Source: Clostridia bacterium (GTDB taxonomy: Bacteria > Bacillota > Clostridia > Saccharofermentanales > DTU023). Taken from it: 64,000 bases of DNA. Numbering within the stretch: position 1 is the stretch's first letter; each line of letters begins with the position of its first letter. This document shows, in pieces, positions 18,124-40,105 of this stretch. The translations under genes were made by a program, and so were the position numbers. The notes below the pieces were generated by a model. The model was not told where the DNA came from. It worked only from the letters and a program-made list of their open reading frames with translations, and searched no databases. The stretch covers positions 135,826 through 199,825 of the forward strand of contig JAXGOR010000003.1 in NCBI GenBank assembly GCA_040767365.1, in the 5' to 3' direction.

Positions 18124-18164
18124 AAAAAAGACCGGCAGCTTTGAAGGCCTGCCGGTCTTTTTTT
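18124..18164. terminator. Bidirectional intrinsic terminator
   Basis: AAAAAAGACCGGCAG..CTGCCGGTCTTTTTTT between convergent genes. Confidence 0.9.
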
Positions 18165-18179
18165 GTTTACTCGAGACGC

Positions 18180-21613: not shown

Positions 21614-21811
21614 TCATAACCTCCCTGGACCAACCGGTCGTCGTGGCGCCGCGCGCCCACCCTGTTCATACGCCTGCCCACTGTCCGTCCGCCTCAGGCC
21701 GATCCGGGCAGGGGAGGCTTCTGTATATTCATCATACGCTATGGCGGCTGATAATTGTTACAGGATTACTATCTTTTTTCATTCAGATTTTTGAATTCCC
21801 CTGGAAGGATA

Positions 21812-21849
21812 TTGTATGTCAGCACAGAATGCGCTATTGTGTATACACA
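21812..21849 (+). promoter_or_regulatory. Candidate promoter and GntR operator of the glutamate-fermentation operon
   Basis: TTGTAT-N17-TATTGT, overlapped by the perfect palindrome TGTGTATACACA (21838-21849). Confidence 0.55.
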
Positions 21850-21868
21850 GTTGAAAGAGAGGCTGGGG

Positions 21869-22714
21869 ATGGGGATCCGTGAATTCCAGGTAGACCTTTT
21901 GAGGGATGCCTTAGAGCGTATGTGTGGCCCGGCTGCCTGTGAGTTGCCGGCTGACGTGGAGGGGGCGGTGTCGGCGGCCTTGTCATCGGAAGACAGCCTG
22001 ACTGCCCGGTTGGTACTGGAAGAGATTTTGGAAAATTATGATATCGCGGCCGATGAGGGGATCCCAATTTGCCAGGATACCGGTCTGGCCTTTGTTTTTA
22101 TGGACGTCGGCCTGGACGTCCATTTTTCTGGGGATCCTTACGCGGCCATCGATGAAGGGGTCCGGCGAGGCTACCGGAAGAATTGCCTGCGGATGTCAGT
22201 TGTCCGGGATCCCTTACGGCGGGTCAATACGGGCGACAATACGCCGGCCCTGGTCTCGACCCGGCTCGTGCCAGGCGACAGGGTGACCGTGACCCTCCTG
22301 GCCAAGGGCTTTGGCAGTGAGAACATGAGCCGGCTGGCCATGCTCCGGCCCGCCGATGGCCTGGAGGGGGTAAAGGCATTTGTCTTGGAGACCGTGCGGG
22401 AGGCGGGTCCCAATGCCTGTCCACCCCTGGTGATCGGGGTGGGTCTGGGGGGGACCTTCGACCAGGTTGCCCTGGCCGCTAAAAGGGCGCTGACCCGGAA
22501 GCTGGGAGAGGCACACGAGGATCCCTTTTATGCCGATCTTGAAAAAAATCTCCTGGAGGAAATCAATCAACTGGGTCTGGGTCCCCAGGGTATGGGCGGA
22601 CGGACGACAGCGCTTTCTGTCGCGCTTGAAGTCCTGCCCACCCACATTGCCGGCCTGCCGGTCGCCTGCAATATCAATTGCCATGTAGCGCGCCACCGGA
22701 AGGAGGTCCTGTGA
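21869..22714 (+). CDS. Class I fumarate hydratase alpha subunit (probable mesaconate hydratase)
   Basis: PICQDTG, NTGDNTPA, KGFGSEN, AGPNACPP, GPQGMGG and CNINCH motifs; operon context. Confidence 0.9.
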   Translation: MGIREFQVDLLRDALERMCGPAACELPADVEGAVSAALSSEDSLTARLVLEEILENYDIAADEGIPICQDTGLAFVFMDVGLDVHFSGDPYAAIDEGVRRGYRKNCLRMSVVRDPLRRVNTGDNTPALVSTRLVPGDRVTVTLLAKGFGSENMSRLAMLRPADGLEGVKAFVLETVREAGPNACPPLVIGVGLGGTFDQVALAAKRALTRKLGEAHEDPFYADLEKNLLEEINQLGLGPQGMGGRTTALSVALEVLPTHIAGLPVACNINCHVARHRKEVL

Positions 22715-23292
22715 TGTCAAGCAAAAGCTGGATCCCTCTTGAGGCCCCTCTGGACGAGGCCCGGGCCCGGGCCCTCCGTTCGGGTGACCGGGTCCTCCTC
22801 TCGGGGACTGTCTATACGCTCCGGGACGCCGGCCACAAGCGCTTGATAGAGGAGCTGGAGCAGGGCAGGGAGCCGCCCTTCCCTCTCCAGGATGCCGTCA
22901 TCTATTACGTGGGGCCCACACCAGCCCCTCCGGGCCGGGTGATCGGATCCGCGGGGCCGACGACCTCTTACCGGATGGATCCCTATACACCGGCCTTGAT
23001 CGAGCGTGGTCTCCGGGGCATGATCGGCAAAGGCTACCGTGACGACAAGGTCCTGGAAGCCATGAAAAAGGGAGGGGCGGTCTATTTCGCGGCGACGGGC
23101 GGAGCGGGTGCCCTGCTGTCCAAAACTATCCGGGAGGCTGAGGTGATCGCCTGGGAAGATCTGGGCACGGAAGCACTCCGGCGGCTGGTCGTCAGGGACA
23201 TGCCCCTGACGGTGGTCATAGACAGCCAGGGCAATGACCTCTACCGGGAGGGCCCCCGGGCCTGGCGGCGGTCGCAGGGATACGACAGGTAA
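22714..23292 (+). CDS. Class I fumarate hydratase beta subunit (probable mesaconate hydratase)
   Basis: RDAGHKRL, YYVGPTP, GSAGPTTSYRMD, MIGKG and GTEALRRL motifs; TGATG overlap with the alpha gene. Confidence 0.92.
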   Translation: MSSKSWIPLEAPLDEARARALRSGDRVLLSGTVYTLRDAGHKRLIEELEQGREPPFPLQDAVIYYVGPTPAPPGRVIGSAGPTTSYRMDPYTPALIERGLRGMIGKGYRDDKVLEAMKKGGAVYFAATGGAGALLSKTIREAEVIAWEDLGTEALRRLVVRDMPLTVVIDSQGNDLYREGPRAWRRSQGYDR

Positions 23293-23297
23293 GAAGG

Positions 23298-24281
23298 ATG
23301 GACAGGAAGAGCGAGCCGGTCTACAAGCAGATTGCCGACGCCCTGAGGGCCCGGATTGAATCGGGCGAGCTGGCGGCCGGGAGCCGGTTGCCCTCCCTTA
23401 GGGTCCTGGCCCAGGAAGAGGGCGTCTCTGTTGGCACGGCCCGGCATGTCTATGACCTGCTTGAGCAGGAGGGGATCATTGAGCTCCGGAGGGGACGGGG
23501 CAGTTTTGTCACCCTTCCCCTGGCCCAGCAGGATCCGGAGGGCCGCAAGGAAAGAGCGCTGCGGGCGATCGATACCATGATCGGTGAGCTCTCCTCCCTG
23601 GGTTTTTCCACCCGGGAGGCGCAGATATTCTTCGAACTCCGCCTCCGGCAGATGGAGGACTCGACCCGACCGGTCCGCCTGGCCATCGTTGCCGCCACAC
23701 CGGAGGAGCGGTCCATCCTGGGAGAGGCGCTCGAGAAACTGGAAGGGGTGGGAGTTCACCCGATCTCCTACAGCGATTTGCTCTCACAGCCGGGGAGGCT
23801 CAGGGTGGGCTTCGACCTTGTCGCCGCGCCGGCTCCCTTGATCGGGGACCTGAGGCGTCTGGTGCCGGAAGGTCTGCCCCTTATGCCGGTGGCCCTGACC
23901 GTGAGTCATGAGACGGCCTTTGCCTGCCGCCGTATACCGAAAGGATCACGTATCGGGGTCCTGACCGCGAGTGAGGGCTTCGGTCGGCTGATCCAGCGCG
24001 AGTGTATCGATCTCCTCCCCGATTCCGGCATTACCGAGTACGGGCGGTTCGGGGACCGGGACAGGACCCGGGAGTTCATCCGGAGACAGGATGTGCTCCT
24101 GATGTCGCCCAATTATTCCGATCTGGTTGAAACAGCGGAATTGAAGCTCTTCCGGGGCCGGCTCCTGGAGGGCAAGACCCTGATCCGGGTTGTATTCGAG
24201 TGCGATGAGGGCTCGCTCCTTTATCTGGGTAATGCCATTGAATTACGTTATCGCGCCTTACGCGAGTTCCTTCCGGGTTGA
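23298..24281 (+). CDS. GntR-family regulator with atypical C-terminal domain
   Basis: wHTH PVYKQIADAL..GSRLPSLRVLA..VSVGTARHVYDLLEQEG..RRGRGSFV. Confidence 0.88.
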   Translation: MDRKSEPVYKQIADALRARIESGELAAGSRLPSLRVLAQEEGVSVGTARHVYDLLEQEGIIELRRGRGSFVTLPLAQQDPEGRKERALRAIDTMIGELSSLGFSTREAQIFFELRLRQMEDSTRPVRLAIVAATPEERSILGEALEKLEGVGVHPISYSDLLSQPGRLRVGFDLVAAPAPLIGDLRRLVPEGLPLMPVALTVSHETAFACRRIPKGSRIGVLTASEGFGRLIQRECIDLLPDSGITEYGRFGDRDRTREFIRRQDVLLMSPNYSDLVETAELKLFRGRLLEGKTLIRVVFECDEGSLLYLGNAIELRYRALREFLPG

Positions 24282-24732: not shown

Positions 24733-26129
24733 GGCCGGTTCTCCTGATCGATTTTGGCAGCACCTATACCAAGCTGGTCGCCGTGGACCTCGACCAGGCG
24801 GAGCTGCTCGGGACCGCCTCCGCTCTCACCACGGCCGACAGGGATATCGGGGATGGCTTCCAGAAAGCCTTGGCAGACCTGCATACGAGGACAGGTGTCC
24901 TGGACTATGGCTACAAATTGGCCTGCTCCTCGGCGGCAGGCGGCCTGCGCATGATGGTGTCGGGCCTGGTGCCGGAACTGACGGCAGAGGCCGCGCGCCT
25001 GGCGGCCCTGGGAGCGGGGGCCAGGATTATCCGGGTCTTCAGCCATGAATTGAGCAGGCGGGATCTGGAGGAGATCGAGGCGGCCGTGCCCGACATCTTC
25101 CTTTTGACGGGCGGGACTGACGGCGGCAACCAGGACTGTGTGACGGGCAACGCGAAGAAACTGGCCTCCCTCCCGCTTACCTTCCCCATTATCTATGCCG
25201 GCAACCGCTCTGCCCTGGACGCTTGTGAGGTTATTCTGAAGGATTTTCCGCTGACCGTCTGCCCCAATGTCATGCCGCGTTTCGGGGAGCTCAGGATTGA
25301 ACCGGTGCAAAAGGAAATAAGGGCGCTTTTCCTGTCGCGGATAGTCCAGGCCAGGGGGCTTAGCCGGACAAAAGAGCTCCTGTCGGGCATCCTCATGCCC
25401 ACCCCCTCGGCCCTCCTGGCCGCCGTGACCCTCTTGGCCGACGGGACAGGGGAGGAGCCGGGTCTGGGTGAACTGATGGCAATCGATGTGGGCGGGGCGA
25501 CGACTGACGTCTATTCAATTGGCCGGGGGGAACCGGACGACGTCAGGGTGCTTGTCAAGGGCCTTGAGGAACCCTACGCCAAGCGGACCGTGGAGGGTGA
25601 TATCGGGGTCCGCCACAGTATCCCGGGCATCCTGGAGGAGGCGGGCCTGGAAGAGATTGCCCGGGACGCCGGTCTCTCAGTGCCGGAGACGGAAGAACTG
25701 CTTGACCAGGTCTCCCAGGCTTGCGGCAGGCTTCCCCAAGGCGACCAGGACCACCTGCGGAGGCTGGACGACGCGCTCGCCGCAGGGGCCATCGAGACGG
25801 CGACCCGGCGGCATGCCGGGCAACTGGAGGAGGTCTACACGCCGACAGGCCTGGCCTATGTGCAGACAGGAAAGAACCTGAAAGGGATCCGGCGGCTGAT
25901 CCTGACCGGGGGCTGCCTGGTCCACACAGCCAGGCCCTGCCTGTTGGCCCGCCGGGCCCTCTACAGCCGGCAGCGGCCGGAGTCACTCCGGCCCTTGGAG
26001 GTGGAGCTATACCATGACAGGTCTTACATTCTGGCGACCATGGGGGTCCTGGCGGAGCGGGAGCCCGCCCTGGCTCTCCGGATCATGAAGAAGGAGCTGA
26101 CCCGGCTGGGATCCTGTCGCCGGGATTAG
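24729..26129 (+). CDS. glmL: Glutamate mutase reactivating/accessory protein L
   Basis: [46 protein letters not shown] and KRTVEGDIG; lies between the S and E genes. Confidence 0.93.
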
Positions 26130-26165: not shown

Positions 26166-27620
26166 ATGGATGAACTGCAAAATAAAAAATGGACCCGTGA
26201 TGAGCTTGAAGGTGTCCGGGCAGAGGTGCTGACCCAGTGGCCGACGGGCAAGGAGGTCAAGCTTGATGAAGCCTTCGCCTACCACCAGCAACTGCCCGCC
26301 CACAAGATCTTCAGCCGGAAGCTCGACCAGGCGCATGAGGAGGGCAGGACCCTGATCCAACCCCGGGCCGGGGTTCCGCTCATCCAGGACATGATAGAGC
26401 TTCTGACCTACCTGCAGGATACAGGTCAGGCCGACCTCCTGCCGACCACCATCGACAGCTACACGAGGCAGAACCGTTACCAGGAGGCGGAGATCGGGAT
26501 CACTGAATCGGTCAGGACCCTCAAGGCCATGCTGAACGGGTTTCCCGCGGTCAACCATGGCGTCAGTGGTTGCCGCCAGCTGATCGACGCGCTTGATACC
26601 CCCCTGCAGATCCGCCACGGGACGCCGGATGCCCGCTTGCTGACTGAGATCGCCTACGCCGGTGGCTACACCAGTTACGAGGGGGGCGGGATCTCCTACA
26701 ATATCCCTTACGCCAAAAATGTTCCCTTGGAGACGACCCTCCGTGACTGGCAGTATATCGACCGCCTGACCGGGTTGTATGAGGAGGCCGGCTGCCCGAT
26801 CAACCGGGAGCCCTACGGCCCGCTTACGGGTACCCTGGTCCCCCCCTTCATCTCGCACAGTGTGGCCATCATTGAAAGTCTCCTGGCCGCTGAGCAGGGG
26901 GTCAAAAACATCACGGTGGGCTACGGCCAGTGCGGGAATCTTGTCCAGGACGTGGCCGCTGTCCAGGTCCTCCAAAGCCTGACCGAGGAGTACCTTCGCA
27001 AATACGGTTACGGGGACGTGCATGTGACCACGGTCCTCCATCAATGGATGGGGGGCTTTCCCCAGGAAGAGGCGCAGGCCTATGCCGTCATCTCCTGGGG
27101 GAGTGCCGTGGCGGCCCTGGCCCACGCCACCAAGGTCATCGTCAAGACCCCGCATGAGGCTGTCGGCGTGCCGACCCGGGAGGCCAACGCGGCCGGCATG
27201 CTCTGTACGCGGCAGATCATCAATATGTTGGGCGAGCAGAGCCTCAACACCTACAGCCTGAAGGATGATAAGGTCATAATCGACTCGGAGACCCGCTGTG
27301 TGCTGGACCGCTGTTTCGAACTCGGTCAGGGCGATATCGCCAAGGGTACCATCCTGGCCATCCGCTCCGGTGTCCTCGACATCCCCTTCGCGCCCAGTCG
27401 CTACAACGCGGGGAAAATGCTGCCGGCCCGGGACAACGAAGGCGCCATCCGCCTTTTTCATATCGGCAATATCCCGCTGACATCCGAGCTGGCTGATTTT
27501 CATAGGGAAAAGATTGAGGAACGGGCCAAGCATGAGAAGCGTCAGGCCTCCTTCCAGATGGTGATAGATGATGTCTACGCCATCAGCAAGGGTCGGTTGG
27601 TCGGGCGCCCCAGGTTATAA
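26166..27620 (+). CDS. glmE: Glutamate mutase subunit E
   Basis: [64 protein letters not shown]. Confidence 0.97.
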
Positions 27621-27660
27621 ATACGGTCTTTCGACCGTTGGCTATAGAAAGGAAACAATA

Positions 27661-28902
27661 GTGAAGATTGAAAAAGTCATTTGTGCCCCGGGACGGACAG
27701 GTTTTTACTTCGATGACCAGGAGGCCATCAAGTCCGGGGCAGAAAGCGATGGGAATTTCTACCTCGGCCCCGCGGTGACCCCGGGCTTTTCCCGGATCAG
27801 GCAGGCGGGCGAGGCCATTTCCCTCATGCTGATCCTGGAGGACGGCCAGCTGGCCTTTGGCGACTGTTGCGCCGTCCAATACTCGGGCGCCGGGGGGCGT
27901 GACCCCCTCTTTCTCGCCTCCGACTTCATGCCCGTCATCAGGCAGGAGCTGGCCCCCCTCCTGGAGGGCCGGGAACTCTCCTCCTTCCGGGCCCTGATGG
28001 AAGCATTTGAATCCCACCGGGACCCGGACGGTCGAAAGCTCCATACGGCCATCCGCTATGGCCTTTCCCAGGCTGTCCTTGATGCTGTCGCCCGGGCCAG
28101 CGGCCGGCTCATGTGTGAGGTGATCGCGGATGAGTACGATACAGGGATCAGCCAGACTCCCATCCCCGTTTTTGCCCAAACGGGCGATGAACGCTATGAC
28201 AACGCCGACAAGATGATCATCAAGCAGGTTGAGGTCCTGCCTCATGGCCTGATCAACAATATGGATAAACTGGGGGTGGGGGGCCAGGCCCTGGCGGATT
28301 ACCTGGGCTGGTTGCGCGACCGGGTGCTCAACTTCCGGCCAAGCGATGACTATACCCCTGTCTTCCACATCGATGTCTACGGTACGATCGGCCTCCTCTT
28401 CGGACCCGGGAATCTGGGGGCCATGGCCGCCTATCTCGAACGGCTGGCGGCAATCGCCGAGCCCTTCAAGCTCCGGATTGAGGGACCACTGGATGCCGGA
28501 TCAAGGGAGGCCCAGATCGAAGGGCTCTCCCGCCTGACCAGGGAAATTGACAGACGGGGGGTGGCCGTGGAGATCGTTGCCGATGAATGGTGCAATACCT
28601 TTGAGGATGTCCGGGCTTTTGCCGATGCAGGGGCCGGCCACATGATCCAGATCAAGACGCCCGACCTGGGCAGCCTTCACATGACGGTCGAGTCGGTCCT
28701 CTACTGTAAGGAAAAGGGCGTCAAGGCCTATCTGGGCGGCACCTGCAATGAGACCTCCCGGTCGGCGGAGATCTGTGTCCATGTGGCCATGGCGACCTGC
28801 CCTGACCAAATCCTGGCCAAGCCCGGCATGGGCGTCGATGAAGGGATTATGATTGCGCATAACGAAATGCGGCGGATCCTGGCGCTGAGGGCGGCGCGCT
28901 GA
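27661..28902 (+). CDS. mal: Methylaspartate ammonia-lyase
   Basis: FYFDDQEAIK, GDCCAVQYSGAGGRDPLF, LPHGLINN, HIDVYGTIG, VADEWCNT, GGTCNET, LAKPGMGVDEG; GTG start 27661. Confidence 0.96.
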   Translation: MKIEKVICAPGRTGFYFDDQEAIKSGAESDGNFYLGPAVTPGFSRIRQAGEAISLMLILEDGQLAFGDCCAVQYSGAGGRDPLFLASDFMPVIRQELAPLLEGRELSSFRALMEAFESHRDPDGRKLHTAIRYGLSQAVLDAVARASGRLMCEVIADEYDTGISQTPIPVFAQTGDERYDNADKMIIKQVEVLPHGLINNMDKLGVGGQALADYLGWLRDRVLNFRPSDDYTPVFHIDVYGTIGLLFGPGNLGAMAAYLERLAAIAEPFKLRIEGPLDAGSREAQIEGLSRLTREIDRRGVAVEIVADEWCNTFEDVRAFADAGAGHMIQIKTPDLGSLHMTVESVLYCKEKGVKAYLGGTCNETSRSAEICVHVAMATCPDQILAKPGMGVDEGIMIAHNEMRRILALRAAR

Positions 28903-28935: not shown

Positions 28936-29214
28936 ATGGAATTGAAGAAGAAAGCGCAGGCGGGGACCCTGGAATCAAGTGACCTCCTGGTTCTGGTTGA
29001 ACCATCCGGGAGACTTGAAATCAAGATCGAATCACCCGTGGAAAAACAATTCGGGGAGGCCATCCTGGCCACGGTCCGGGAGGTCCTGGAGGAATATGGC
29101 GTGGAGACCGGCAAAATCCGGCTGGCCGACCAGGGGGCGCTTGACTGCACCATCCGGGCCCGCCTGGCCACGGCCCTGAAGAGGGCCGGCGGGGAAGTGG
29201 GAGGTGGCGTATGA
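28936..29214 (+). CDS. citD: Citrate/citramalate lyase acyl carrier protein
   Basis: AQAGTLESSD (prosthetic-group Ser) and DQGALDCTIRARL. Confidence 0.95.
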   Translation: MELKKKAQAGTLESSDLLVLVEPSGRLEIKIESPVEKQFGEAILATVREVLEEYGVETGKIRLADQGALDCTIRARLATALKRAGGEVGGGV

Positions 29215-30107
29215 GGCGGTCCCTGCTCTTCATTCCAGGCAATCAGCCCAGCATGATCCAAAACGGTATGGTGCTTCCGGCGGATGCCCTGATCTTTGAC
29301 CTGGAGGATTCAGTCCCCCCGGGTGAAAAGGATGCCGCGCGGGACCTGGTCGCCTCCGCGCTCCGGTCCCTGGATTTCGGGCCACGCCAGCGACTTGTGC
29401 GGATCAATGAGCCGGGTTCGGTTTACTGCCGGCAGGATCTGGAGGCTGTCCTGCCGGCCGGGGTCGACAGTCTCCTGATCCCCAAGGTGTCAGGAGGGGA
29501 GATGATCCAGGCCTTTGACTCCCTCCTCCTCGAGCTTGAGGGGGCGTATGGCTTGCTGGCGGGTGGAATTTCCCTGATCGCCCTGATCGAAACGGCTCTG
29601 GGGGTCGAAAAGGCCTATGAGACAGCCCTGGCCTCACCCCGGGTCCAGGCACTGGCCTTGGGGGCCGAGGACCTGGCGGCCGATCTTGGCTGTGAACGGA
29701 CTCCGGAAGGCCTTGAAATCCTCTACAGCCGATCGAGGCTGGTGGTCGCCGCCCGGGCAGCCGATATCGAAGCGATCGACACCCCCTTTACCCAGGTCCA
29801 GGACCTGGAGGGATGCCTGGCGGACGCGCGCCTGGCCCGGAGCCTGGGTTTTACCGGAAAACTCAGTATCTCCCCCCATCACCTGGACCCGATCCATCAG
29901 GCCTATACCCCAAGCCGGGAGGAGCTGGCCTATGCCCTTGAGGTCAGGGAGGTCATGGCGAGGGAAGCCGGATCCGGGAAGGGGGCTGTCTCCCTTCGCG
30001 GCAAGATGATTGATCCGCCGGTTCTCAAGCAGGCGGACCGTATCATCGCCTGGGCGAAAGCGGCAGGCCTGGCCCTTGATAGGGAGGAGGGAGGGAAGCT
30101 TGATTAA
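29211..30107 (+). CDS. citE: Citrate/citramalate lyase beta subunit (acyl lyase)
   Basis: RRSLLFIPGN, IFDLEDSV, LIETALG, LGAEDL, AIDTPF, GFTGK and GKMIDPP. Confidence 0.93.
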   Translation: MRRSLLFIPGNQPSMIQNGMVLPADALIFDLEDSVPPGEKDAARDLVASALRSLDFGPRQRLVRINEPGSVYCRQDLEAVLPAGVDSLLIPKVSGGEMIQAFDSLLLELEGAYGLLAGGISLIALIETALGVEKAYETALASPRVQALALGAEDLAADLGCERTPEGLEILYSRSRLVVAARAADIEAIDTPFTQVQDLEGCLADARLARSLGFTGKLSISPHHLDPIHQAYTPSREELAYALEVREVMAREAGSGKGAVSLRGKMIDPPVLKQADRIIAWAKAAGLALDREEGGKLD

Positions 30108-31512
30108 GGATGATAAAGTCGTCCCCAGCCTGGAGGAGGCCATAAGGCAGTCGGGGCTGGCCCCGGGTATGACCCTGTCCTTCCACCATCATCTCCGGGA
30201 GGGTGACAGGGTGCTGAACCTGGTCCTCGCCGCCTGCAAGCGATTGGGGCTCAAGGATTTGACAGTCAATGCCTCCGCCCTCATGGCCTGCCACCGGCCG
30301 GTCCTTGACTTCATCCGTCAAGGTACGGTAGGCGGCCTGGAGTGTGACTACATGCAGGCTTCCGTCGGCCAGGCCATTTCCCGGGGCCTGCTTGACCGGC
30401 CGGTGATCTTTCGCAGCCACGGCGGCCGGCCGGCGGCGCTCCAAAGAGGGGAGGCCTCCATCCAGGTCGCCTTCATCGCGGCCTCAGCCGCCGACCGGGA
30501 GGGCAACTGCAATGGGCAGGAGGGGCCGGCGGCCTTCGGTTCCATTGGCTATGCCATGCCCGATGCCGACTATGCCGACCATGTAGTGGTTGTAACCGAC
30601 CACCTGCTTCCCACCCCGCTTGAACAGGCCTCCATTCTTGGGGACAAGGTGGACGCGGTCGTCCTCGTCGATTCCATCGGTGATCCGTCCAGGATCATGT
30701 CGGGTACGACCCGGGTGACCCGTGACCCCATCGGCCTGCTCATCGCCCGTTACGCGGCGGAGGCCCTGGTCGCCTCAGGCCTTGTCAAGGAGGGCTTCTC
30801 CTTCCAGACGGGGGCGGGGGGCATCTCCCTGGCGGTGGCCGGGTACCTGGGGGAGATCATGCGGGAAAGGGGGATCAGGGGGAGTTTCGCCTCGGGCGGG
30901 ATCACGGGCCTCCTGGTTGATCTTTTCCAGGAGGGTCTCTTCGGGGAACTTCTCGACGTCCAGTGTTTTGACCGGGACGCCGTCCGGTCCATCCAGGAGA
31001 ACGAGAGACACCGGGAAATCAGCGCCTCCACCTACGCGAGCCCGGCAGTCAAGGATGCCGTGGTCGACCGGCTGGATACCGTGATCCTCGGTGCCACCGA
31101 AATCGACACGGCCTTCAATGTCAATGTCCATACCGATTCAAACGGCCTGATCATGGGCGGCTCCGGCGGGCATAGCGATACGGCGGCCGGGGCGAAACTG
31201 GCGGTCATCGTGGCCCCCCTCATGCGGGCCAGGCTGCCCCTGATCGTCGACCGGGTCAGGACCCTGTCGACACCCGGAAAGACCATCGAATTGCTGGTCA
31301 CCCAGTTCGGCCTGGCCTGCAACCCCGGAAGCGGAAACCTGAGGGCAAGGCTGGAAGAGGCAGGCCTGCCCGTCTTCTCCATCCAGGAACTCAAGGCCAA
31401 AGCCGAATCGATCACGGGGGTGCCTGTCCGGGCTGTATCCCGGGGCCGGCCGGTCGGGGAGGTCATGGGCCGGGACGGCGACCTGCTCGACCTGATAGTG
31501 GCCGTGGAATGA
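30100..31512 (+). CDS. citF: Citrate/citramalate lyase alpha subunit (ACP transferase)
   Basis: SFHHHLREGD, RSHGGR, FSFQTGAGG, ILGATEID and GGSGGHSD; TTG start 30100. Confidence 0.94.
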   Translation: MIKDDKVVPSLEEAIRQSGLAPGMTLSFHHHLREGDRVLNLVLAACKRLGLKDLTVNASALMACHRPVLDFIRQGTVGGLECDYMQASVGQAISRGLLDRPVIFRSHGGRPAALQRGEASIQVAFIAASAADREGNCNGQEGPAAFGSIGYAMPDADYADHVVVVTDHLLPTPLEQASILGDKVDAVVLVDSIGDPSRIMSGTTRVTRDPIGLLIARYAAEALVASGLVKEGFSFQTGAGGISLAVAGYLGEIMRERGIRGSFASGGITGLLVDLFQEGLFGELLDVQCFDRDAVRSIQENERHREISASTYASPAVKDAVVDRLDTVILGATEIDTAFNVNVHTDSNGLIMGGSGGHSDTAAGAKLAVIVAPLMRARLPLIVDRVRTLSTPGKTIELLVTQFGLACNPGSGNLRARLEEAGLPVFSIQELKAKAESITGVPVRAVSRGRPVGEVMGRDGDLLDLIVAVE

Positions 31513-31560: not shown

Positions 31561-32619
31561 CTAGGATTTCGCCAGGCCATAGCGGAGGGATACCTCCGTT
31601 TTAAAGCGCTTCTGCTCGATCATGAACTGCAGGGTGTTCCGGATGGTCTCCGAAAGCGGGCGGACCGTGTAGCCGAGTTCAGCCCGGGCCTTCTCATGGG
31701 AGAAACGGTGCGGGGAACTCATGGTGAAGAGGGAATAGCGGGTGAGGACAGGGATTTTCCCTGTTTTTTTGGACCACCATTCCGAAAAGGGGGCCGCCAG
31801 CTTGGCCAACCAGAGTGGGGCCGTGCCTTTGAATCTTTTCCGGCCCGTCATCTCCGCCGCCTCATTCATGATCTCCAGCACACTGACATTGTGGCCGGTG
31901 AGATTGTAGCTTTGGCCTGTCCGGCCCGTCAGGGCGGCGGCGATCAGCCCGTCGGCCACATCATTGACGTCAACGAAGTTGTAGCTTCCCTGGATCATGG
32001 CGGGTAGTTTCCGGTCGACGAGTTTTTCGAAGAGCCGAGTGAAGTTGCCATCCAGGTAATCATTGGGTCCCAGGATGCCGGATGGCTGGACAATCACGGT
32101 GTCAAGACCCCTGCGGGCGGCATCGAGGACCAGCTGGGAGGCTTGGGCCTTGGACTTGGCGTAGTCGCCGTAGACCTGTTGGGGGTCGTAATGGTCGATC
32201 TCCACGATCTCCTGGTCGAAGTCTTCGGGCAGGGGGAGGGTGTGGATGGTTCCGCAGTATAAAAAGCGCTTGGCCTTATATTTCTCCGCCGCTTCCAGCA
32301 TATGGCGGGTTCCCCCGACATTGATATTGTAAACCCGGGGTCCGGCCTGGGCGTAGATGGTGATCAGGCTGGCCAGGTGGAGCACATAGATCTCTTTATC
32401 GTCCAAGCCCAGGAAGAGCGGCTCCAGGCTGGCCGGGTCCGTGACATCACCTGAGACGACTTCCGCCTTCAGGCCCTCCAGTGCCTTGGGACGCTCCTTC
32501 TCCAATATGAAGGCGCGGACGGCTTCGCCCCGGGTCAGTAATTTCCGGATGACCGTGTTCCCCAGGTGACCTGAAGCCCCGGTTACCAGCCAGATTCTTT
32601 CCTTGTTATTTGTCATCAT
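31561..32619 (-). CDS. Extended SDR / NAD-dependent epimerase-dehydratase family protein
   Basis: LVTGASGHLG, HLAS, NVGGT, YAKSK (YxxxK), VQPSGILGP. Confidence 0.9.
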   Translation of the reverse strand: MMTNNKERIWLVTGASGHLGNTVIRKLLTRGEAVRAFILEKERPKALEGLKAEVVSGDVTDPASLEPLFLGLDDKEIYVLHLASLITIYAQAGPRVYNINVGGTRHMLEAAEKYKAKRFLYCGTIHTLPLPEDFDQEIVEIDHYDPQQVYGDYAKSKAQASQLVLDAARRGLDTVIVQPSGILGPNDYLDGNFTRLFEKLVDRKLPAMIQGSYNFVDVNDVADGLIAAALTGRTGQSYNLTGHNVSVLEIMNEAAEMTGRKRFKGTAPLWLAKLAAPFSEWWSKKTGKIPVLTRYSLFTMSSPHRFSHEKARAELGYTVRPLSETIRNTLQFMIEQKRFKTEVSLRYGLAKS

Positions 32620-32756: not shown

Positions 32757-35498
32757 TCAGAGCCAGACCCGGTAGCGTCTGATGAAGAAATATTTGGCGA
32801 CCGATACCAGGACCATGTAGCCAGTGACCACCAGGCCCAGGAAGATAAAGAAGGGCCAGGTCAGCGGAGCCAGATTGAGGAGGCCGGCCAGGGGGGAGAA
32901 GGGGAGGGCGGTCAGGGTCGCGATGCCGAGGAAGGTCAGCAGCATGACGGGCAGGGAGGCGCGCGATTCGATGAAGGGGATCTTGGCAGTCCGGATCATG
33001 TGGATGACCAGGGTCTGGGTCCACATGGAGATGACCATCCAGCCTGCCTGGAAGAAGGCGATGAAGAAGGCGATCTGGGCCGGATCTGTCAGCTGGCTGA
33101 AGGGGGCGCCGACCAGGGCGGGCCCTATCAGGAAGTAGAGGACGACATAGGCCAGGATATCGAAAACAGAGGAGGTGGGGCCGATCCAAACCATGAAACG
33201 GCTGATGGAGGCCGCGTCCCAGGTCCTCGGCACCTTCAGGTAATCCAGGTCCACATTGTCCCAGGGGAGCGAAGCGCAGGAGATATCGTAGATCAGGTTC
33301 AGGATCAGGATCTGGATGGCCGTCATGGGCAGGAAGGGGAGGAAGGCGGCGGCGATCAGCATGGAGAAGACGTTCCCGAAGTTGGAGGAGGCCGTCATCT
33401 TGATGTACTTGATCATGTTGGCGTAGGTCCGCCTGCCCTCGATGATGCCCTGCTCCAGTACCATGAGATCTTTTTCCAGCAGGATGACATGGGAGGATTC
33501 CTTGGCGATGTCGACGCCGGTGTCAACCGAGATGCCGACATCGGCATCCTGCAGGGCGGTCACGTCATTGATGCCGTCCCCCATATAGCCGACACTGTGG
33601 CCATTTTGGCGGAGGAGCTTGACAATACGCGATTTCTGGAGGGGGGACAGGCGGGCCAGGACCGTGGTGCTCTCAGCCGCCCGGGTCAGTTCCCCGTCAT
33701 CCATGGCCTCTATGTCATCGCCCGTCAGGATATGCTCAACGTCCAGGCCCACCATCTGGCAGATGGCGCGGGAGACCTTCTCGTTGTCCCCGGTCAGGAC
33801 CTTGACCTCCACCCCGTGATCATGGAGGGCGGCGATGGCGGCTTTCGTCGACAGCTTGGGTGGGTCCAGGAAGGCCAGATAGCCGATCAGGACCATATCG
33901 GTCTCATCCGTCACGCTGAACATGCCCACCGGCGAGGGGTTGGTCTTCTGGGCGATCAGGAGGACCCGCAAGCCCTTTTCGTTGTACTCATCCACATCCT
34001 CCCGGACACGATGGATGACCTCTTCGTCGAGCGGCACCACCCGGGCGTCATCAATCTGGGCGTAGGCGCAGACGGCCAGCATCTCCTCCAGCGCCCCCTT
34101 GGTTATCATCTGGGTCTTGCCTGCCCTGTCCCTGACCACTACGCTCATACGGCGGCGTTCAAAGTCAAAGGGGATCTCATCGACTTTCTCGTAGCGTTCC
34201 TGAAGCCGCTCAAGCCCGTCCCCGGCCTTGTCCTCCTCCTCATGGGTCTTCTCAACAATGGCTTCATCCATGAGATTCCGGAGGCCCGTCTGGAAATAGG
34301 AATTCAGATAGGCATGCCTCAGGACACGTGGATTTTCCTTGCCGGCCAGGTCCAGATGGTACTCGAGGGCGACCCGGTCCTGGGTAATGGTGCCTGTCTT
34401 GTCCGTGCAGAGGATATCAATGGAGCCCAGGTTCTGGATGGCGTTCAGGTTCTTGATGATGACCTTCTGCTTGGACATATGGACGGCGCCCTTGGCCAGG
34501 CTGGCAGTCACGATCATGGGGAGCATCTCGGGGGTGAGGCCGACCGCCAGGGAGATGGCGAGGAGCCCTGCCTGGAGCCAGTTGCCCTTGGTCAGACCTG
34601 AGATGAGGAAGACAACGGGGACCATGACCAGCATGAAGCGGATGAGGACCGCCGAGACGTGGTTGACCCCCCGCTCAAAGGAGGTGGGCTCCGGTTTTTC
34701 CTTCAGGCTCTTGGCAATCTGTCCGAAGACCGTGTCCTGGCCTGTCGCCAGAACGATACCGGTCCCGCTGCCGGAGATGACGTTGGTCCCCATGAAGGCC
34801 AGGTTGGGGTAGTCGAGGACATGGTTGGAATCAAGGTCGGAGGCCTCGGCGTATTTCTCGGCATGGGCCGATTCGCCGGTCAGGGTGCTTTCGCTCAGGA
34901 AGAGGTCCTTGGCGGCCAGGATCCTCATATCGGCCGGTATCATATCGCCGGCGGCCAGCTGGACGATATCCCCGACCACGGCCTCCTCCATGACCCGCTC
35001 CCTTTCGCCGTCCTCCTGGCGGACGATGGCGGTCGTGTTGACGATCATGTTGGTCAATTTCTCCGCGGCGTTACCGGACCGGGTCTCCTGGATGAAGCGG
35101 AGGGCTCCTGATACCAGGACCATGGCGCTGATGAGCAGGACCGTGATGTAGCTCCTGTCCTCCGGGGCGGCGAAGGCGATATCGGTCAGGACCGAGATCG
35201 CGGCCAGGACGATCAGGATCAGGGTGAAAGGATTGATGAAGGCATTGAAGAGGCGCTCGAGGAAGGTGACTTTGTGGCCGTGGATGACGACATTGTCTCC
35301 ATAGAGGCTACGGCTTTTGATGACCTCACTTTCCCCCAGGCCCGTCAGCCGGCTATCGATTGCCTCCAATACCCCCTCAGGACCCAGGTGGGCACAGTCC
35401 AGCAGTCTTTTCTGGACGACGGCGGGTATCTCAGCGGGCCGGTTCAAGGCTGTCCGCGTCAGTTCTTCCTTTGTCCTGGCGTGTGATTCTTCTGCCAT
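32757..35498 (-). CDS. mgtA: Magnesium-translocating P-type ATPase
   Basis: [24 protein letters not shown]-like [58 protein letters not shown]. Confidence 0.95.
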
Positions 35499-35647
35499 CC
35501 ATTCGCTCCGATCATTTGTTGAATTTCATTGTACGGGAATCCGGCAGGCCCCGCAAAAACCTGGCAGGCGGGGCCTGATTGTGAGACAATGCGGTCAGGG
35601 CTTCAATAAGAAGAGGCCCGCGCGGAGGCTGTCCCGCCAGAAGGAGT

Positions 35648-36610
35648 TTGGCCATGTCCTATTCAGACCGAATGCAGCGTAACCATCTCTACAGTGTGCT
35701 CCTATCCCCCCGCGGGGCCCCCCGCATGGTTGACCAGGGCAGGCAGATCTCCCAGCAGTTCCTTTCGCCCTTTGATTCACTCATCGGCCTGATCGGCGAC
35801 AGTGGATCGGGCAAGAGCATCCTCTTGAAGGGGATGTTCCCCGGCCTTGAACTGACCAATGATGACGAGGGGGTCAACGTCCGGCCCCTGCCGCTCATGC
35901 ACCTGGATGACACGGGTTTTTTCACCCCCCATACCTACCATGTCGACATCCGTTTCGAACTGGCCTTCCACCAGGCCCACGAGCTTGCCCAGGCCATCCG
36001 CCAGGCCCTGGACCAGGGCAAGCGCGTCATTGTCGAGCATTTCGACCTGATCTATGACCAGCTGGGTATGAACGCCCATCTCCTGATCGGGATCGGCGAG
36101 GAGATCATCGTGACGCGTCCTTCCGTCTTCGGTCCTGAGCCCACCGATGTCAAGGACGTGGTCTTCAGCTCCATCAACAACCGACGCATGGCCCATACGG
36201 CCGAGGACCTGGTCGAGCATTGCCTGATCGACCGCCGGGTCTATCACTTTGAACACTTCGATGTCAGGTCAGGCTTCATCCTCTCCTTCCATGACCGGCC
36301 GGAGCTGGATCTTAGGGAGCTGGAGCAGGATGTCAAGGAGCTGATCGAACGTGATCTGCCCATCTCCTACCACGACGCGACCCATGTCCTGATCGGTGAC
36401 CAGCGCCACTACTGTACCGGACCCCGCATGCATGTCAAATCGACGGGCATGATCAAGGACTTCCAGCTCTACCAGGAGTTCCTGACCCATCCGATCACCA
36501 AGGATTCACAGATATTGGGCCTGGTCAACATCCCGTCCGATTACAGGCTGTCCGACCTGAATTCGCTTCGGCTCATGACCTTCCCCGTTCCCGAGAATCT
36601 CGAAGTCTAG
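35648..36610 (+). CDS. Uncharacterised P-loop protein with C-terminal tRNA-synthetase SAD/editing-like domain
   Basis: LIGLIGDSGSGKS (Walker A), RVIVEHFD (Walker-B-like), then HTAED and HYCTGPRMHVKSTG resembling the HxxxH/CxGxH motifs of ThrRS/AlaX editing domains. Confidence 0.75.
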   Translation: MAMSYSDRMQRNHLYSVLLSPRGAPRMVDQGRQISQQFLSPFDSLIGLIGDSGSGKSILLKGMFPGLELTNDDEGVNVRPLPLMHLDDTGFFTPHTYHVDIRFELAFHQAHELAQAIRQALDQGKRVIVEHFDLIYDQLGMNAHLLIGIGEEIIVTRPSVFGPEPTDVKDVVFSSINNRRMAHTAEDLVEHCLIDRRVYHFEHFDVRSGFILSFHDRPELDLRELEQDVKELIERDLPISYHDATHVLIGDQRHYCTGPRMHVKSTGMIKDFQLYQEFLTHPITKDSQILGLVNIPSDYRLSDLNSLRLMTFPVPENLEV

Positions 36611-36624
36611 CGAAGGGGGCCGCC

Positions 36625-38061
36625 ATGCGACCGCTCCTTGACTATGCCGCCATAGTCAGCCAACCCGTAGGCCTGGAGGAAGTTCTCGCCAGCCGTGATT
36701 CCCGCGCCCAGCGGCAGAAGGTCCTGAGGGAGAAGACCGGCTGTCCGGTCATTACCCTGTCGCTCAATCTCCCGGGGGCCATTAAGCGGACCCCCCTGTC
36801 CAGCTTTTTTTTCGATCGGGAGCTGGCTTGGCTGAAACTGATCCTGGGCCGACTGGGAGCCCTCCTTGAAGCCGAATGGATAGGGCAGGGGGTAGGGGGG
36901 GATGAGGCGGTCCTTGCCGTTAGCGGTCTTCCGGCGGAAGCCTTGAAATCCTTGACCTTGGAGCAGGAGCTGCGAAAAGAGGCCTCCCGGCTCCTTGACC
37001 TGGATGTCCAGGACCAGGCCGGGCGGCCCCTGAAAAGGGTCGGAAGAGGCCTGGCCCCCAGGACCTGCCTCCTCTGTGATCAACCCGCTGTCGTCTGTTC
37101 ATCCAGGCGTGCCCATCCGCTTGAACAGCTCACCAGGAAGGTCAATGACCTGCTTGCCGCCTACGCGGCAGGGATCTTGGCGGATGAGGTCGCCGGCCTG
37201 GCCGCGGAGGCTTCCGCCTTCGAGCTCATGGTTGCCCCCAAGCCCGGCCTGGTCACCTGTCGTGATTCCGGTTCCCATGATGACATGGACCGGTTTACCT
37301 TCATCCGCAGCCAGGCCTCACTCATTAAATACTACCGTCAGTCCTTCCTGCTCGGCTGGGAGCCGGGACCCGGTCTGGAGGAAAAAGCGGTCCGGCTCCG
37401 CCATCTGGGCCTGGAGGCGGAGGGGACCATGGAGGAGGCGACGGGCGGCGTCAATACCCATCGGGGTTGGATCTACAGCTCAGGCATCCTGCTCCTGGCG
37501 GTGGGGGAATACCTGGCCGGGGTCTTTACTCCACCCGGACCGGGGAACCTGTTTGATTTTCTGGCCTCCCGGACAGCAGGGATAGCCCGGTCGCTTGAAG
37601 AGACGGTCCTGGGGACCCCTCATTTCTACCTGCTGTCCCGGCGCTTGAATGCCTCCCCCTGTCCGGCCGGCGTCCGGGAAGAGGCCCTGGGGGGATTTCC
37701 CTCCCTCTTTGATCTGGGCCTCCCTGTCCTGCGCCGGGCCCTGGAGGCCGGTGATGACGAAAACACGGCGGGCCAGAGGACCCTCCTGGCCCTCCTGGCC
37801 AGGGTTTCCGACAGCACCCTGCAGAAAAGGGCTGGCGAGGAGGGGGCGGAGGCCATCAGGGAATTGGTCGTGGAGAGGCTGGGATCGGATCAGCTTGTGG
37901 AGGCGGCTTCCGGTCTGCCGGCCGCCGGGCTTGGTCACTTGATGGAGGAGCTGTCCGAGCGCTTTACCCGGGAAGGATTGAGCTGTGGTGGCGTCGCGGA
38001 CCTGCTCGCCGCCAGCCGATTTATGGAGCGCCTTGGCAGGTTGCTTGTTACGGATCTGTAA
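36625..38061 (+). CDS. citXG: Fused holo-ACP synthase CitX / triphosphoribosyl-dephospho-CoA synthase CitG
   Basis: CitX half: LEEVLASRDSRA, SLNLPG, RLLDLDV, RTCLLC. CitG half: PKPGLVT, GSHDDMD, TGGVNTHRG, GVREEA, SCGGVADLLA. Confidence 0.92.
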   Translation: MRPLLDYAAIVSQPVGLEEVLASRDSRAQRQKVLREKTGCPVITLSLNLPGAIKRTPLSSFFFDRELAWLKLILGRLGALLEAEWIGQGVGGDEAVLAVSGLPAEALKSLTLEQELRKEASRLLDLDVQDQAGRPLKRVGRGLAPRTCLLCDQPAVVCSSRRAHPLEQLTRKVNDLLAAYAAGILADEVAGLAAEASAFELMVAPKPGLVTCRDSGSHDDMDRFTFIRSQASLIKYYRQSFLLGWEPGPGLEEKAVRLRHLGLEAEGTMEEATGGVNTHRGWIYSSGILLLAVGEYLAGVFTPPGPGNLFDFLASRTAGIARSLEETVLGTPHFYLLSRRLNASPCPAGVREEALGGFPSLFDLGLPVLRRALEAGDDENTAGQRTLLALLARVSDSTLQKRAGEEGAEAIRELVVERLGSDQLVEAASGLPAAGLGHLMEELSERFTREGLSCGGVADLLAASRFMERLGRLLVTDL

Positions 38062-38152: not shown

Positions 38153-40105
38153 TTGATGTCACTGGAAAACCCTCTCGCGGGAGAAGAGCAGGATCAAACG
38201 GACCGACCGGTCAAACCTGTCAGACGTAGCCGGCCGAAGGTCAGGAAGCGCAAACGCGTCACAGCCGGTGCCAGGGGCAGGTTGCTCTTTTATGGAATTC
38301 CCGTCATTGCCCTTGTCTTGATTGTCACCCTTTTTGTTATAAAAATCGCCTCTGCCGAACAGGTTGGGGTCCCCCTTATGGACCCCGATGAACTGGAAGG
38401 GCAGGGCGGACTGATAGACCGCGACCACCCGATCCCCCTCCTGGCCGAAGACGAAGGGACAGACGGGCCCGAGATCATCGTGATACCTGAAGATGAATAT
38501 TTGATGGCGGTCGGCGAAACGGGAAGCCCGGATGATGAGGATCCGGATCCATCCCTTGCCTCGGTCGAGACCTTGACCAGGCTCTATGTCAGGGAAAAAT
38601 CGATAGCCATCCATGCCGCGGCGGAGGAGACTGCCGATGTTCTGACCAAGGCCCTCCTGAACGAATGGCTCATCCAGCTTGACACGGAGGAGGGCTGGGT
38701 ATTTGTCCGAAACGCGGCCGGTATAGAGGGTTATGTGAAGGCGGACGGCGTCAGTGAAGAGCCTGTCTTCGTACCCGTGTCGGGTGAGAGCTATTATGTC
38801 CAGAACCGTCAGGTCTACGTGCGTGAAGGTCCGGGGACCAATCATCCCATTGAGGGCTTTGGCCTGCGCGGGATGACGCTGACCGTCCTGGAGGCAGGTG
38901 AGGGCTGGTCCAGGATCAGGACGGAGCACGGCCTCACCGGTTATATGCTCAACGAGCTGTTCGGTCCGGTCAAGCCGGCCAATGAGATTACGGAGCTCGA
39001 GTGTGGCCGCTACATGTACATCGATACGGAAGAGGCCAACTTGCGTGAATCGCCCTCGACCGATGCCGAGATCATCGGCGCGGCCTTCATGGATGACCGG
39101 GTCTATCAGATATCCGACAACGGCGGCTGGTCCAAGATAAGGACAGAGGGCGGGGTCGTCTCCTATGTCTTCAATCACCTGCTCAGGGAGAAGCCACCCG
39201 CCAACCCCTTTGTAAAGACCAACCGGAGCCTTTACGTCAATACCGGATCGGTCAATGTCCGCAGCTCACCGACCACGGACGCCTCGGTCATTGAAAGAAT
39301 TGAACGGGACCAGAAGGTGACGGAACTTGAGGCCAACGATACCTGGTCGAAGGTCAAGCTGGAGAGCGGAAAGATCGGCTTTATCCGGAGCGATTTGCTG
39401 ACCCATGTCACACCGCCGCCGGCTGGCTTTGAACGGGCGACCGGGGCTGTTTACGTGACGACCGGGGCGGCCAATATCCGTTCCCAGCCCAATACCAACT
39501 GCTCGATTGTGACGGTGGTCCGCCACCGGGACAAGCTGACCAAGAAGGCGGTGGGTTCTGAGTGGACCATGATCCAGACAGGCTCCGGCCAGTCAGGCTA
39601 CATATCAAATGACCTGATCTCAAGCAAACAGCCTGCCCCGCCCGCGACCGGCGGCAGCAGCGGGGGAAGCAGCTCCGGCGGCAGTAGCTCGGGTGGATCC
39701 AACGCCGGCAACAGCAGCGGCAACGCCGACTTGAGGCAGCGGGTTGTGGATATTGCCCGATCAGCCCTGGGCACACCCTACCGGCTGAGCGGGAAGAATA
39801 TGAATGCCTTCGATTGTTCTGGCCTGGTCAAATACACCTATGAAGCCATTGGTTACAAGAATATTCCGCACGGTTCCGACCCACAGGCCAGGCAACTTGG
39901 CAGCCGGGTCTCCTTCTCAGGGCGTGATTTCTCCAACCTCCTGCCCGGAGATCTGATCTTCTTCAGCAGGGGCTATGGTTACCACCATGTCGGTATATAC
40001 ATCGGCAATAACCAGATGATCCACGCGGTCAGCGGCCGTGGTGTCGTGGTGGATAATCTTCTGACCTACCCGGTGGCATCCAGGGTCAATCGGGTCCTCA
40101 ACTGA
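38153..40105 (+). CDS. Membrane-anchored NlpC/P60 peptidoglycan endopeptidase with five SH3b domains
   Basis: TM helix, five V/L-N-x-R..W..GY SH3b repeats, Gly/Ser linker, intact FDCSGL and HHVGIYIG..MIHA. Confidence 0.92.
   Translation: MMSLENPLAGEEQDQTDRPVKPVRRSRPKVRKRKRVTAGARGRLLFYGIPVIALVLIVTLFVIKIASAEQVGVPLMDPDELEGQGGLIDRDHPIPLLAEDEGTDGPEIIVIPEDEYLMAVGETGSPDDEDPDPSLASVETLTRLYVREKSIAIHAAAEETADVLTKALLNEWLIQLDTEEGWVFVRNAAGIEGYVKADGVSEEPVFVPVSGESYYVQNRQVYVREGPGTNHPIEGFGLRGMTLTVLEAGEGWSRIRTEHGLTGYMLNELFGPVKPANEITELECGRYMYIDTEEANLRESPSTDAEIIGAAFMDDRVYQISDNGGWSKIRTEGGVVSYVFNHLLREKPPANPFVKTNRSLYVNTGSVNVRSSPTTDASVIERIERDQKVTELEANDTWSKVKLESGKIGFIRSDLLTHVTPPPAGFERATGAVYVTTGAANIRSQPNTNCSIVTVVRHRDKLTKKAVGSEWTMIQTGSGQSGYISNDLISSKQPAPPATGGSSGGSSSGGSSSGGSNAGNSSGNADLRQRVVDIARSALGTPYRLSGKNMNAFDCSGLVKYTYEAIGYKNIPHGSDPQARQLGSRVSFSGRDFSNLLPGDLIFFSRGYGYHHVGIYIGNNQMIHAVSGRGVVVDNLLTYPVASRVNRVLN

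Follow-up and report, generated by a model that had tools for sequence, protein, structure and literature searches.

A TsaE-like ATPase joined to an AlaX-like editing domain is encoded with the glutamate mutase/methylaspartase cluster of anaerobic bacteria

In a stretch of 64,000 nt from the genome of a Clostridia bacterium (assembly GCA_040767365.1, contig JAXGOR010000003.1, positions 135,826 to 199,825; hereafter the window, in which all coordinates are counted), we analysed a gene on the plus strand at 35654..36610. Its 318-aa product, here called the gene X protein, consists of a TsaE-like ATPase and an AlaX-like editing domain. This architecture has not been described before and lies outside the curated Pfam and NCBIfam models. 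The constant partner of gene X is the glutamate mutase/methylaspartase cluster (glmS-glmL-glmE-mal, often with mesAB). Glutamate fermentation via methylaspartate is a textbook B12 pathway which was worked out decades ago, and the clusters of hundreds of anaerobe species carry this conserved protein without an assigned function. Both of its domains derive from tRNA-related families, and we tentatively favour the idea that it is a proofreading hydrolase coupled to the pathway, which would remove 3-methylaspartate from mischarged tRNA. We know of no report of a TsaE-like plus AlaX-like protein in a B12-pathway operon, and full-text literature searches revealed no functional study of the gene X family.

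The gene X protein and its two domains

The reading frame 35648-36610 (+) is open throughout. Its mechanical start is the TTG at 35648; the probable start of gene X is the ATG at 35654, and a GAAGGAG which we read as its ribosome-binding site (35638..35644, plus strand) lies 9 nt before it. From this ATG the product begins with MSYSDRMQ, and homologues of 317-318 aa begin with MSYS. In three public contigs the gene call gives the same 318-aa product, with a citX-citG fusion gene (citXG) directly downstream in each. The family comprises 3,567 database proteins at E<=1e-3, many of them still 58-62% identical, which fall into 265 clusters at 50% identity, mostly of fragments, and it is present in at least 568 species genomes. 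With a family of this size, gene X is not a chance open reading frame. Its hosts include metagenome-assembled genomes (MAGs) of the Saccharofermentanales/Mageeibacillus type, with 81-90% identity to the window protein, and members of the Oscillospiraceae, Peptostreptococcaceae, Anaerovoracaceae, Christensenellales, Anaerolineae, Treponema and Sphaerochaeta. Among the carriers in culture are Desulforamulus reducens, D. ruminis, Desulfotomaculum nigrificans, Carboxydothermus ferrireducens, Hydrogenispora ethanolica, Petroclostridium sp. X23 and Feifania hominis. The database names of the family vary ("lantibiotic ABC transporter", "TsaE", "hypothetical"); none of the public names states a function, and some mislead. 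As for Rosetta-stone fusions, P0225 (577 aa) and P0150 were the only long matches, and both have the look of chimeras that arose in assembly or gene calling.

The N-terminal domain (35648..36127, plus strand; residues 1 to about 160, numbered from the TTG) was assigned as a TsaE-like P-loop ATPase domain by Foldseek, PF02367 and hhalign. An AlphaFold model built from an alignment of 119 sequences is confident (pLDDT 87.8, pTM 0.86), and its N-terminal half matched the TsaE/YjeE structure 6nak_D in the PDB (Foldseek, E 2.4e-5), and also 6n9a_E and 1htw, with a TMt of about 0.56. All 16 of the 16 N-domains compared gave weak matches to PF02367 (TsaE; best E 0.0015), at a score of 15.8 bits which is far below the cut-off of 26.6, as is the score of 16 against TIGR00150 (cut-off 60.1). 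Profile alignment of the N-domain with E. coli TsaE by hhalign scored 20.8, and 20 shuffles did not exceed 6.7.

The Walker A motif GDSGSGKS, proposed already in a previous reading of the sequence only, is indeed present at 35795..35818 (plus strand, residues 50-57). It aligns with GDLGAGKT of E. coli TsaE, and its residues G53, G55, K56 and S57 are invariant in the 119 sequences. The Walker-B-like strand of that reading was found as well: it is RVIVEHFD at 36023..36046 (plus strand, residues 126-133), with E130-H-F invariant. YHVDIR (35936..35953, plus strand, residues 97-102) aligns with the TsaE motif YHFDLYR, and its D100 is a candidate Mg-binding Asp. Invariant as well are H95, T96, H98, D100, R157-P and the residues G62-F-P-G...N71-D-D-x-G-V-N-x-R-P-L-P82; the latter belong to the almost invariant family signature GMFPGLELTNDDEGVNVRPLP (35831..35893, plus strand, residues 62-82). 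TsaE (YjeE), the ATPase of the bacterial t6A complex TsaBDE, thus has in common with gene X the fold, the Walker A pattern GD-x-G-x-GK(S/T) and the strand YH-x-D-x-(Y)R. Unlike TsaE, gene X has the invariant GMFPGLELTNDDEGVNVRPLP after Walker A, and its P-loop domain forms part of a two-domain protein. The annotated neighbourhoods of gene X contained neither tsaB nor tsaD (the genomes themselves were not searched). An ABC-transporter ATPase was rejected as identity of the protein: there is no LSGGQ-like motif, and the ABC_tran match (E 0.012) covers the Walker A stretch only, residues 44-64.

The C-terminal module (36128..36607, plus strand; residues 161-320), for which a ThrRS/AlaX-type fold had been suspected from the sequence, was confirmed as AlaX/AlaRS/ThrRS editing-domain-like by Foldseek, by hhalign and by a weak tRNA_SAD match. 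The C-terminal half of the model matched AlaX (1wnu_B; E 9.2e-5, probability 1.00, TMt 0.53), the ThrRS editing structures 1tje and 1qf6, and AlaRS 9a7x. With hhalign, the C-domain profile aligned with the editing domain of E. coli AlaRS at a score of 23.8 (20 shuffles at most 5.7); the same comparison with the E. coli ThrRS editing domain in global mode gave no alignment. Ten of 20 C-domains gave weak matches to tRNA_SAD (PF07973; best E 8.8e-5), and the window protein reached 12.9 bits (E 0.11), below the gathering score of 24 bits. For the full-length protein, neither Pfam nor NCBIfam returned anything above the cut-offs, with BtrH_N (18 bits) and TsaE (16 bits) as the only weak matches; a C-domain profile HMM and phmmer against PDB sequences gave only a weak Walker A match to ABC ATPases and chance matches to EF-1beta. 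The AlaX relation is visible only when folds are compared and with hhalign.

The putative metal ligands proposed previously are HTAED (H183...D187; 36194..36208, plus strand) and CTGPRMH (C256...H262; 36413..36433, plus strand). This metal-ligand reading is well founded, because hhalign matches them to the motif positions of AlaRS: MAHTAEDL is paired with LNHSATHL of the zinc/catalytic motif H564-x3-H568 (H183 with H564, D187 with H568), DLPISY with NLPIET, and HYCTGPRMHVKSTGMIKDF with ELCGG--THASRTGDIGLF (C256 with C666, H262 with H670). The second motif also resembles C182-RGP-H186 of ThrRS. However, the HxxxH of the first editing helix is not kept, since position 187 is an Asp, and the Cys-His spacing is Cx5H (CTGPRMH) instead of the CxxxH of AlaRS (CGGTH), due to a two-residue insertion. 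In the 119 sequences F161-G-P, R179, G209-F, D243, C256, P259, R260 and G291 are invariant, and H183, E186, D187, H203, D205, R207, H246, H254 and H262 are at least 90% conserved. Gene X and the editing domains of PF07973 thus share the fold and align in the H-x3-(H/D) helix, in an NLPI-type strand and in a C...H followed by (S/N)TG-x-I-x-x-F. Unlike AlaX, the editing-like domain of gene X is fused to a P-loop ATPase, and it is encoded in a catabolic operon and not among translation genes.

Genomic neighbourhood of the gene X family

In the window, a complete methylaspartate-pathway cluster is located upstream of gene X on the same strand. For comparison we collected 80 loci of species genomes nearest to the window protein, with GMFPGLELTNDDEGVNVRPLP as search pattern (lineage A), and 80 loci from metagenomes, for which the Carboxydothermus-type branch served as seed (lineage B). 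To these we added 14 loci for which Pfam annotation was already available. Genes in all loci were identified by tblastn searches with reference proteins. Among lineage-A loci flanked by at least 8 kb on each side, 24 of 31 contained the glm genes and mal, and among lineage-B metagenome loci with flanks of at least 5 kb, 17 of 25 contained glm genes. The hosts of clusters with gene X include Clostridia, Peptococcaceae-type Bacillota, Spirochaetes and Anaerolineae.

The genes directly adjoining gene X vary. Upstream of it we found DUF4387 (25 loci in lineage A and 14 in lineage B), mal (16 and 7), mesA/mesB (0 and 9) and glmE (0 and 6), and MBL-fold genes and citC also occur at this position. 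Downstream of it are mesA (13 and 3), citX/citG (10), citD (5 and 3), rph (0 and 25), cobA (7 loci) and glmS (2 loci). Cit genes and AtuA genes were counted over 161 loci, for which up to 10 kb were retrieved on each side, many contigs being shorter: any cit gene was present in 36 of them and none in 125, and an AtuA(DUF1446)/DUF4387 pair follows mal directly in 57, in no case together with cit genes. Thus gene X occurs with CitDEF, with AtuA/DUF4387 or with a block of HGD-D, BcrAD and MBL-fold genes, and since its linkage to glm holds with all three late-gene sets, it is independent of the downstream chemistry.

The smallest arrangements contain little else. The operon in locus L097 consists of a dicarboxylate transporter gene, glmS-glmL-glmE-mal and gene X, and L161 has the order gerM-murI-glmE-X-rph-rdgB. 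In lineage B the glm cluster typically lies between murI and rph, and gene X is the last gene before rph-rdgB. The genes rph (RNase PH) and rdgB directly follow it in 25 metagenome loci (for example L161:2952-7497 and L102:9962-12352), which may reflect an insertion site or a functional link to tRNA processing; murI and rph belong to a housekeeping array known from Bacillus. A pathway-independent role, considered for L102-type loci with no glm gene in view, was rejected: L105 has mal-hgdD-bcrAD-mesAB 6-9 kb upstream, separated from gene X by inserted genes. The order X-mesA-mesB-gntR was found with no glm gene within 10 kb in L077 and L081. The cluster of E. coli O157:H7 Sakai (glmSLE-mal-DUF1446-DUF4387-gltP-fumD-cobA) is without gene X, and the hypothetical gene ECs_0767, located upstream of glmS and equal in length, is not a homologue.

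In a mirror-tree comparison of 43 loci, the distances of the gene X proteins track those of GlmE best (r 0.78, partial 0.51), with partial correlations of 0.33 for GlmS, 0.15 for GlmL and -0.20 for MAL; this is weak evidence, obtained without a significance test.

Further variants of the cluster were observed. In Hydrogenispora ethanolica (L092:10001-12421) the order is gntR-glmS-glmE-mal-atuA-DUF4387-X-glmL, so that glmL is located after gene X and not between glmS and glmE. A gene for a CobA/BtuR-type corrinoid adenosyltransferase directly follows gene X at L031:10933-11466 and in six similar loci, and the E. coli O157:H7 cluster contains cobA, too. As cobA is a separate gene beside gene X in these seven loci, an adenosyltransferase role of gene X itself was rejected. 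In Desulforamulus reducens and Carboxydothermus ferrireducens (L089:7289-9986 and L090:7533-10004), gene X is preceded by genes for an HGD-D-like protein (PF06050), a BcrAD/BadFG-type activator (PF01869) and an MBL-fold protein; the complete order in C. ferrireducens is murI-glmS-glmL-glmE-HGD-D-BcrAD-MBL-X-rph, without mal. This extension is an undescribed late branch of the methylaspartate pathway.

Possible functions of gene X

Established for gene X are the homology of its two domains, the retained His/Asp/Cys/His motif and the linkage to glm and mal irrespective of the downstream enzymes. We favour proofreading of tRNA because the constant partner makes methylaspartate, because the editing superfamily deacylates tRNA, and because there is a precedent in CtdA; this reading is tentative, and we consider it possible rather than probable. 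To our knowledge, deacylation of mischarged tRNA is the sole biochemical activity known for the AlaX/AlaRS/ThrRS editing fold. Glutamate mutase produces L-threo-3-methylaspartate, a non-proteinogenic amino acid, at high flux, and a tRNA, probably tRNA-Asp/Asn or tRNA-Glu, could be mis-esterified with it. The C-domain, acting as a metal-assisted hydrolase, would then cleave methylaspartate off the tRNA and so keep this intermediate out of proteins, and the TsaE-like P-loop domain could be an ATP-controlled binding or gating module. CtdA is a standalone editing protein encoded directly upstream of the canavanine utilisation operon; it deacylates canavanyl-tRNA-Arg and protects the proteome (PMC10018355). 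Like gene X, it is an editing-domain homologue encoded with an operon for a non-proteinogenic amino acid. In contrast to gene X, it has an unrelated fold (PheRS B3/B4), it lacks an ATPase domain, and its function is proven, whereas that of gene X is predicted. The presence of the pathway without gene X in E. coli O157:H7 means that the gene is dispensable there, as expected for a safeguard and not for a core enzyme.

Several points weigh against tRNA proofreading. The changes from HxxxH to HxxxD and from CxxxH to Cx5H mean that the chemistry may have changed. No tRNA-binding element is recognisable in the gene X family, in which R693 of AlaRS is without an aligned counterpart, and the family is uniformly acidic (median pI 5.6). 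We know of no trans-editing factor which carries or needs an NTPase domain, and a limited literature search found no report of an aminoacyl-tRNA synthetase that activates 3-methylaspartate. That rph adjoins gene X in lineage B may be no more than a sign of where in the chromosome the cluster is located. Finally, the distance matrix of gene X, which tracks GlmE and GlmS best, would be explained at least equally well by a protein that binds to the mutase.

Alternatively, the editing fold could act off tRNA altogether, with the TsaE-like ATPase driving a service to the glutamate mutase pathway, either in adenosylcobalamin handling on GlmE/GlmS or in the removal of wrong acyl groups from a carrier thiol. 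Taken in this broad form, the idea is likewise possible rather than probable.

In a more specific form, gene X would encode an ATP-driven accessory protein or chaperone of the coenzyme-B12-dependent glutamate mutase, by analogy with TsaE, which docks on the ASKHA pair TsaB-TsaD. The TsaE-like ATPase would dock on GlmE/GlmS or on the ASKHA-fold protein GlmL, and the editing-like domain, with its His/Asp/Cys/His site and a pocket of adenosine type, would help in loading, release or repair of adenosylcobalamin. We regard this as rather unlikely, despite several observations which speak for it. The glm genes are the most constant neighbours of gene X; glmE adjoins it in loci without mal, mes or cit genes, it lies directly upstream of glmS in L098 and beside glmL in Hydrogenispora, the tree comparison points to GlmE and GlmS and not to MAL, and cobA directly follows in seven loci. 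P-loop NTPases which service B12 mutases are generally known: like gene X, chaperones of the MeaB/MMAA type combine a P-loop NTPase with genomic linkage to a carbon-skeleton mutase that depends on adenosylcobalamin, and we know of no such chaperone for glutamate mutase. However, MeaB belongs to a different P-loop lineage (one of 16 gene X members gave a faint MeaB match, E 0.19) and has no editing-like domain, and we know of no role of an editing-type hydrolase in B12 chemistry. Moreover, gene X is almost never found inside glmS-glmL-glmE but usually at its outer limit, behind mal, DUF4387 or mesB; it heads mesA-mesB-gntR in two loci with no glm gene nearby, glmSLE and cobA occur without it in E. 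coli O157:H7, and the mirror-tree values are weak.

Gene X could also encode an ATP-dependent small-molecule enzyme of the late pathway, since it usually lies where mal meets the late genes, or heads mesAB. The P-loop domain would phosphorylate its substrate or spend ATP on it in another way, in a step of metabolite repair or activation; this substrate, bound in a remodelled editing pocket, would be a C5 dicarboxylate or an amino-acid derivative (methylaspartate, mesaconate or citramalate, or an adenylate or ester of these). The arginines R22, R26, R79, R157, R179 and R260, which are invariant or nearly so, and R207 (at least 90%) would suit the binding of carboxylate or phosphate, the pTM of the predicted structure implies a fixed arrangement of the two domains, and HxxxD and Cx5H suggest altered chemistry. 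We consider such an enzyme unlikely. The classical methylaspartate pathway, as generally known, has no step which requires ATP, we know of no precedent for an editing fold acting on free metabolites, and the occurrence beside three non-homologous late-gene sets disfavours any one specific late reaction.

That gene X encodes a regulatory ATPase, which senses a pathway metabolite or the energy state for the GntR regulator or for a cluster enzyme, with the editing-like domain as ligand-binding module, appears improbable. A GntR-family regulator is encoded in most lineage-A clusters, X-mesA-mesB-gntR operons exist, and TsaE itself is a switch-like ATPase and not a metabolic enzyme, but lineage-B clusters (Desulforamulus, Carboxydothermus) have gene X and no GntR, and a pure binding module would not need the conserved catalytic-type editing residues.

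Least probable, and in our opinion hardly to be expected, is the role which the sequence-only reading proposed: that gene X acts on CitD, the acyl carrier protein (ACP) of citramalate lyase, by acetylating the prosthetic-group thiol in place of the ligase CitC, or by hydrolysing wrong acyl groups from it. Its observations were accurate. Gene X ends 14 nt upstream of citXG (stop at 36610, ATG at 36625), citC is absent from the 64-kb window (tblastn with CitC of E. coli and of a sister lineage), and the assumed linkage of the family to glm and cit genes does exist. In favour of this role, citXG follows gene X in the window and all close relatives (L008-L017, L065, L001), with no citC within 10 kb in L009-L015; the X-citG pairing is kept away from the rest of the cluster in L026, gene X adjoins citD in mal-X-citDEF loci, and hydrolysis of activated acyl groups on an adenosine-containing carrier would be chemically close to tRNA editing. 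Within the lineage of the window a role directed at the ACP is therefore conceivable, but improbable as the primary function. CitC and gene X are alike as accessory genes beside citDEF-type lyase genes, and both bind ATP. The argument that gene X takes the place of the missing citC fails at the family level, because citC shares the locus with gene X in 11 cases and most loci have no cit gene nearby. The two distributions are thus not complementary, and gene X is unlikely to be a CitC substitute. Examples of loci with both genes are mal-X-citD-citE-citF-citC-citG in the Saccharofermentanales MAGs of L018, L021 and L022, where gene X is 70% identical to the window protein, citC-X in L052, and mal-X-citDEF-citC-mesAB in L145, L146 and L173. 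Further evidence against a role directed at CitD comes from the 125 loci without a cit gene in the retrieved sequence, 57 of them with AtuA/DUF4387, and from operons in which glm(-mal) and gene X stand alone. CitC and the gene X protein are related neither in sequence nor in fold: the Pfam and NCBIfam scans of gene X returned no CitC-type family, and both CitC tblastn queries missed it. The rest of the probability goes to an explanation not yet imagined.

The cluster in the window, the citramalate branch and implications

In the window, the pathway cluster begins on the plus strand with mesA and mesB (21755..23292), which encode a two-subunit mesaconase of the class I fumarase type (these are the limits of the reading frames, and the true starts may lie further in). 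They are followed on the same strand by the GntR-family regulator gene of the cluster (23298..24281), by glmS (24304-24732) and glmE (26166-27620) for the coenzyme-B12-dependent glutamate mutase, with glmL/mutL for the putative reactivase between them (24729-26129), by mal for methylaspartate ammonia-lyase (27568..28902) and by homologues of citD, citE and citF (28936..31512) for the ACP, beta and alpha subunits of a lyase, which we read as citramalate lyase, following PMC4682846. Between the citF block and gene X, an SDR epimerase gene (31561-32619) and a P-type ATPase gene (32757-35498) are located on the minus strand. Downstream of gene X, citX-citG (36625..38061, plus strand; PF03802 and PF01874) is a single reading frame of 478 aa for holo-ACP synthase and triphosphoribosyl-dephospho-CoA synthase, and it is probably co-transcribed with gene X. 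The X-citXG pair is conserved in the own lineage of the window; in some relatives citG alone follows gene X (L002, L026). The next gene (38153-40105) encodes a cell-wall hydrolase with several SH3 repeats and an NlpC/P60 domain. Since it also follows citXG on the public contig L180, the gene order is fixed in the lineage.

A terminator-like hairpin with a T-run (35565-35577, minus strand) was noticed just upstream of the P-type ATPase start, in the 149-nt gap common to this gene and gene X. It could be a leader or attenuator; when the entire window was compared with Rfam, neither a riboswitch nor a leader turned up near gene X, and the hairpin was unmatched. Elsewhere in the window, a reading frame of 644 aa (42230-44164) is an apparent pgk-tpi fusion, with phosphoglycerate kinase as N-terminal and triosephosphate isomerase as C-terminal part according to its translation, and three sizeable plus-strand frames located before the cluster, 15898-18117, 18141-18743 and 19641-20717 (739, 200 and 358 aa), match no Pfam family.

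The AtuA/DUF1446 (PF07287) and DUF4387 (PF14330) pair after mal is found, for example, at L053:8225-9923 and, in E. coli O157:H7, at L088:5934-7618 (ECs_0760/ECs_0759). Because the place after mal is taken either by CitDEF (with CitXG or CitC) or by AtuA/DUF4387, the pair represents a candidate non-homologous citramalate route, that is, a candidate substitute for CitDEF with its helpers CitXG and CitC. Kronen and Berg left the fate of (S)-citramalate in E. coli O157:H7 as a step unaccounted for (PMC4682846). The mutual exclusion described here bears on this step and may equal the main finding in usefulness.

What gene X means for the anaerobes which ferment glutamate via methylaspartate depends on its function. 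If it encodes a helper of the mutase, it fills the gap of the missing MeaB-like helper for glutamate mutase. If the service is performed off tRNA, the editing domain family would have its first non-tRNA function, and glutamate mutase its first dedicated P-loop helper. If, as we tentatively favour, gene X encodes a methylaspartyl-tRNA deacylase, the methylaspartate cluster would be the second catabolic operon, after that of CtdA, with its own translational safeguard, and gene X would be the first editing factor coupled to an NTPase.

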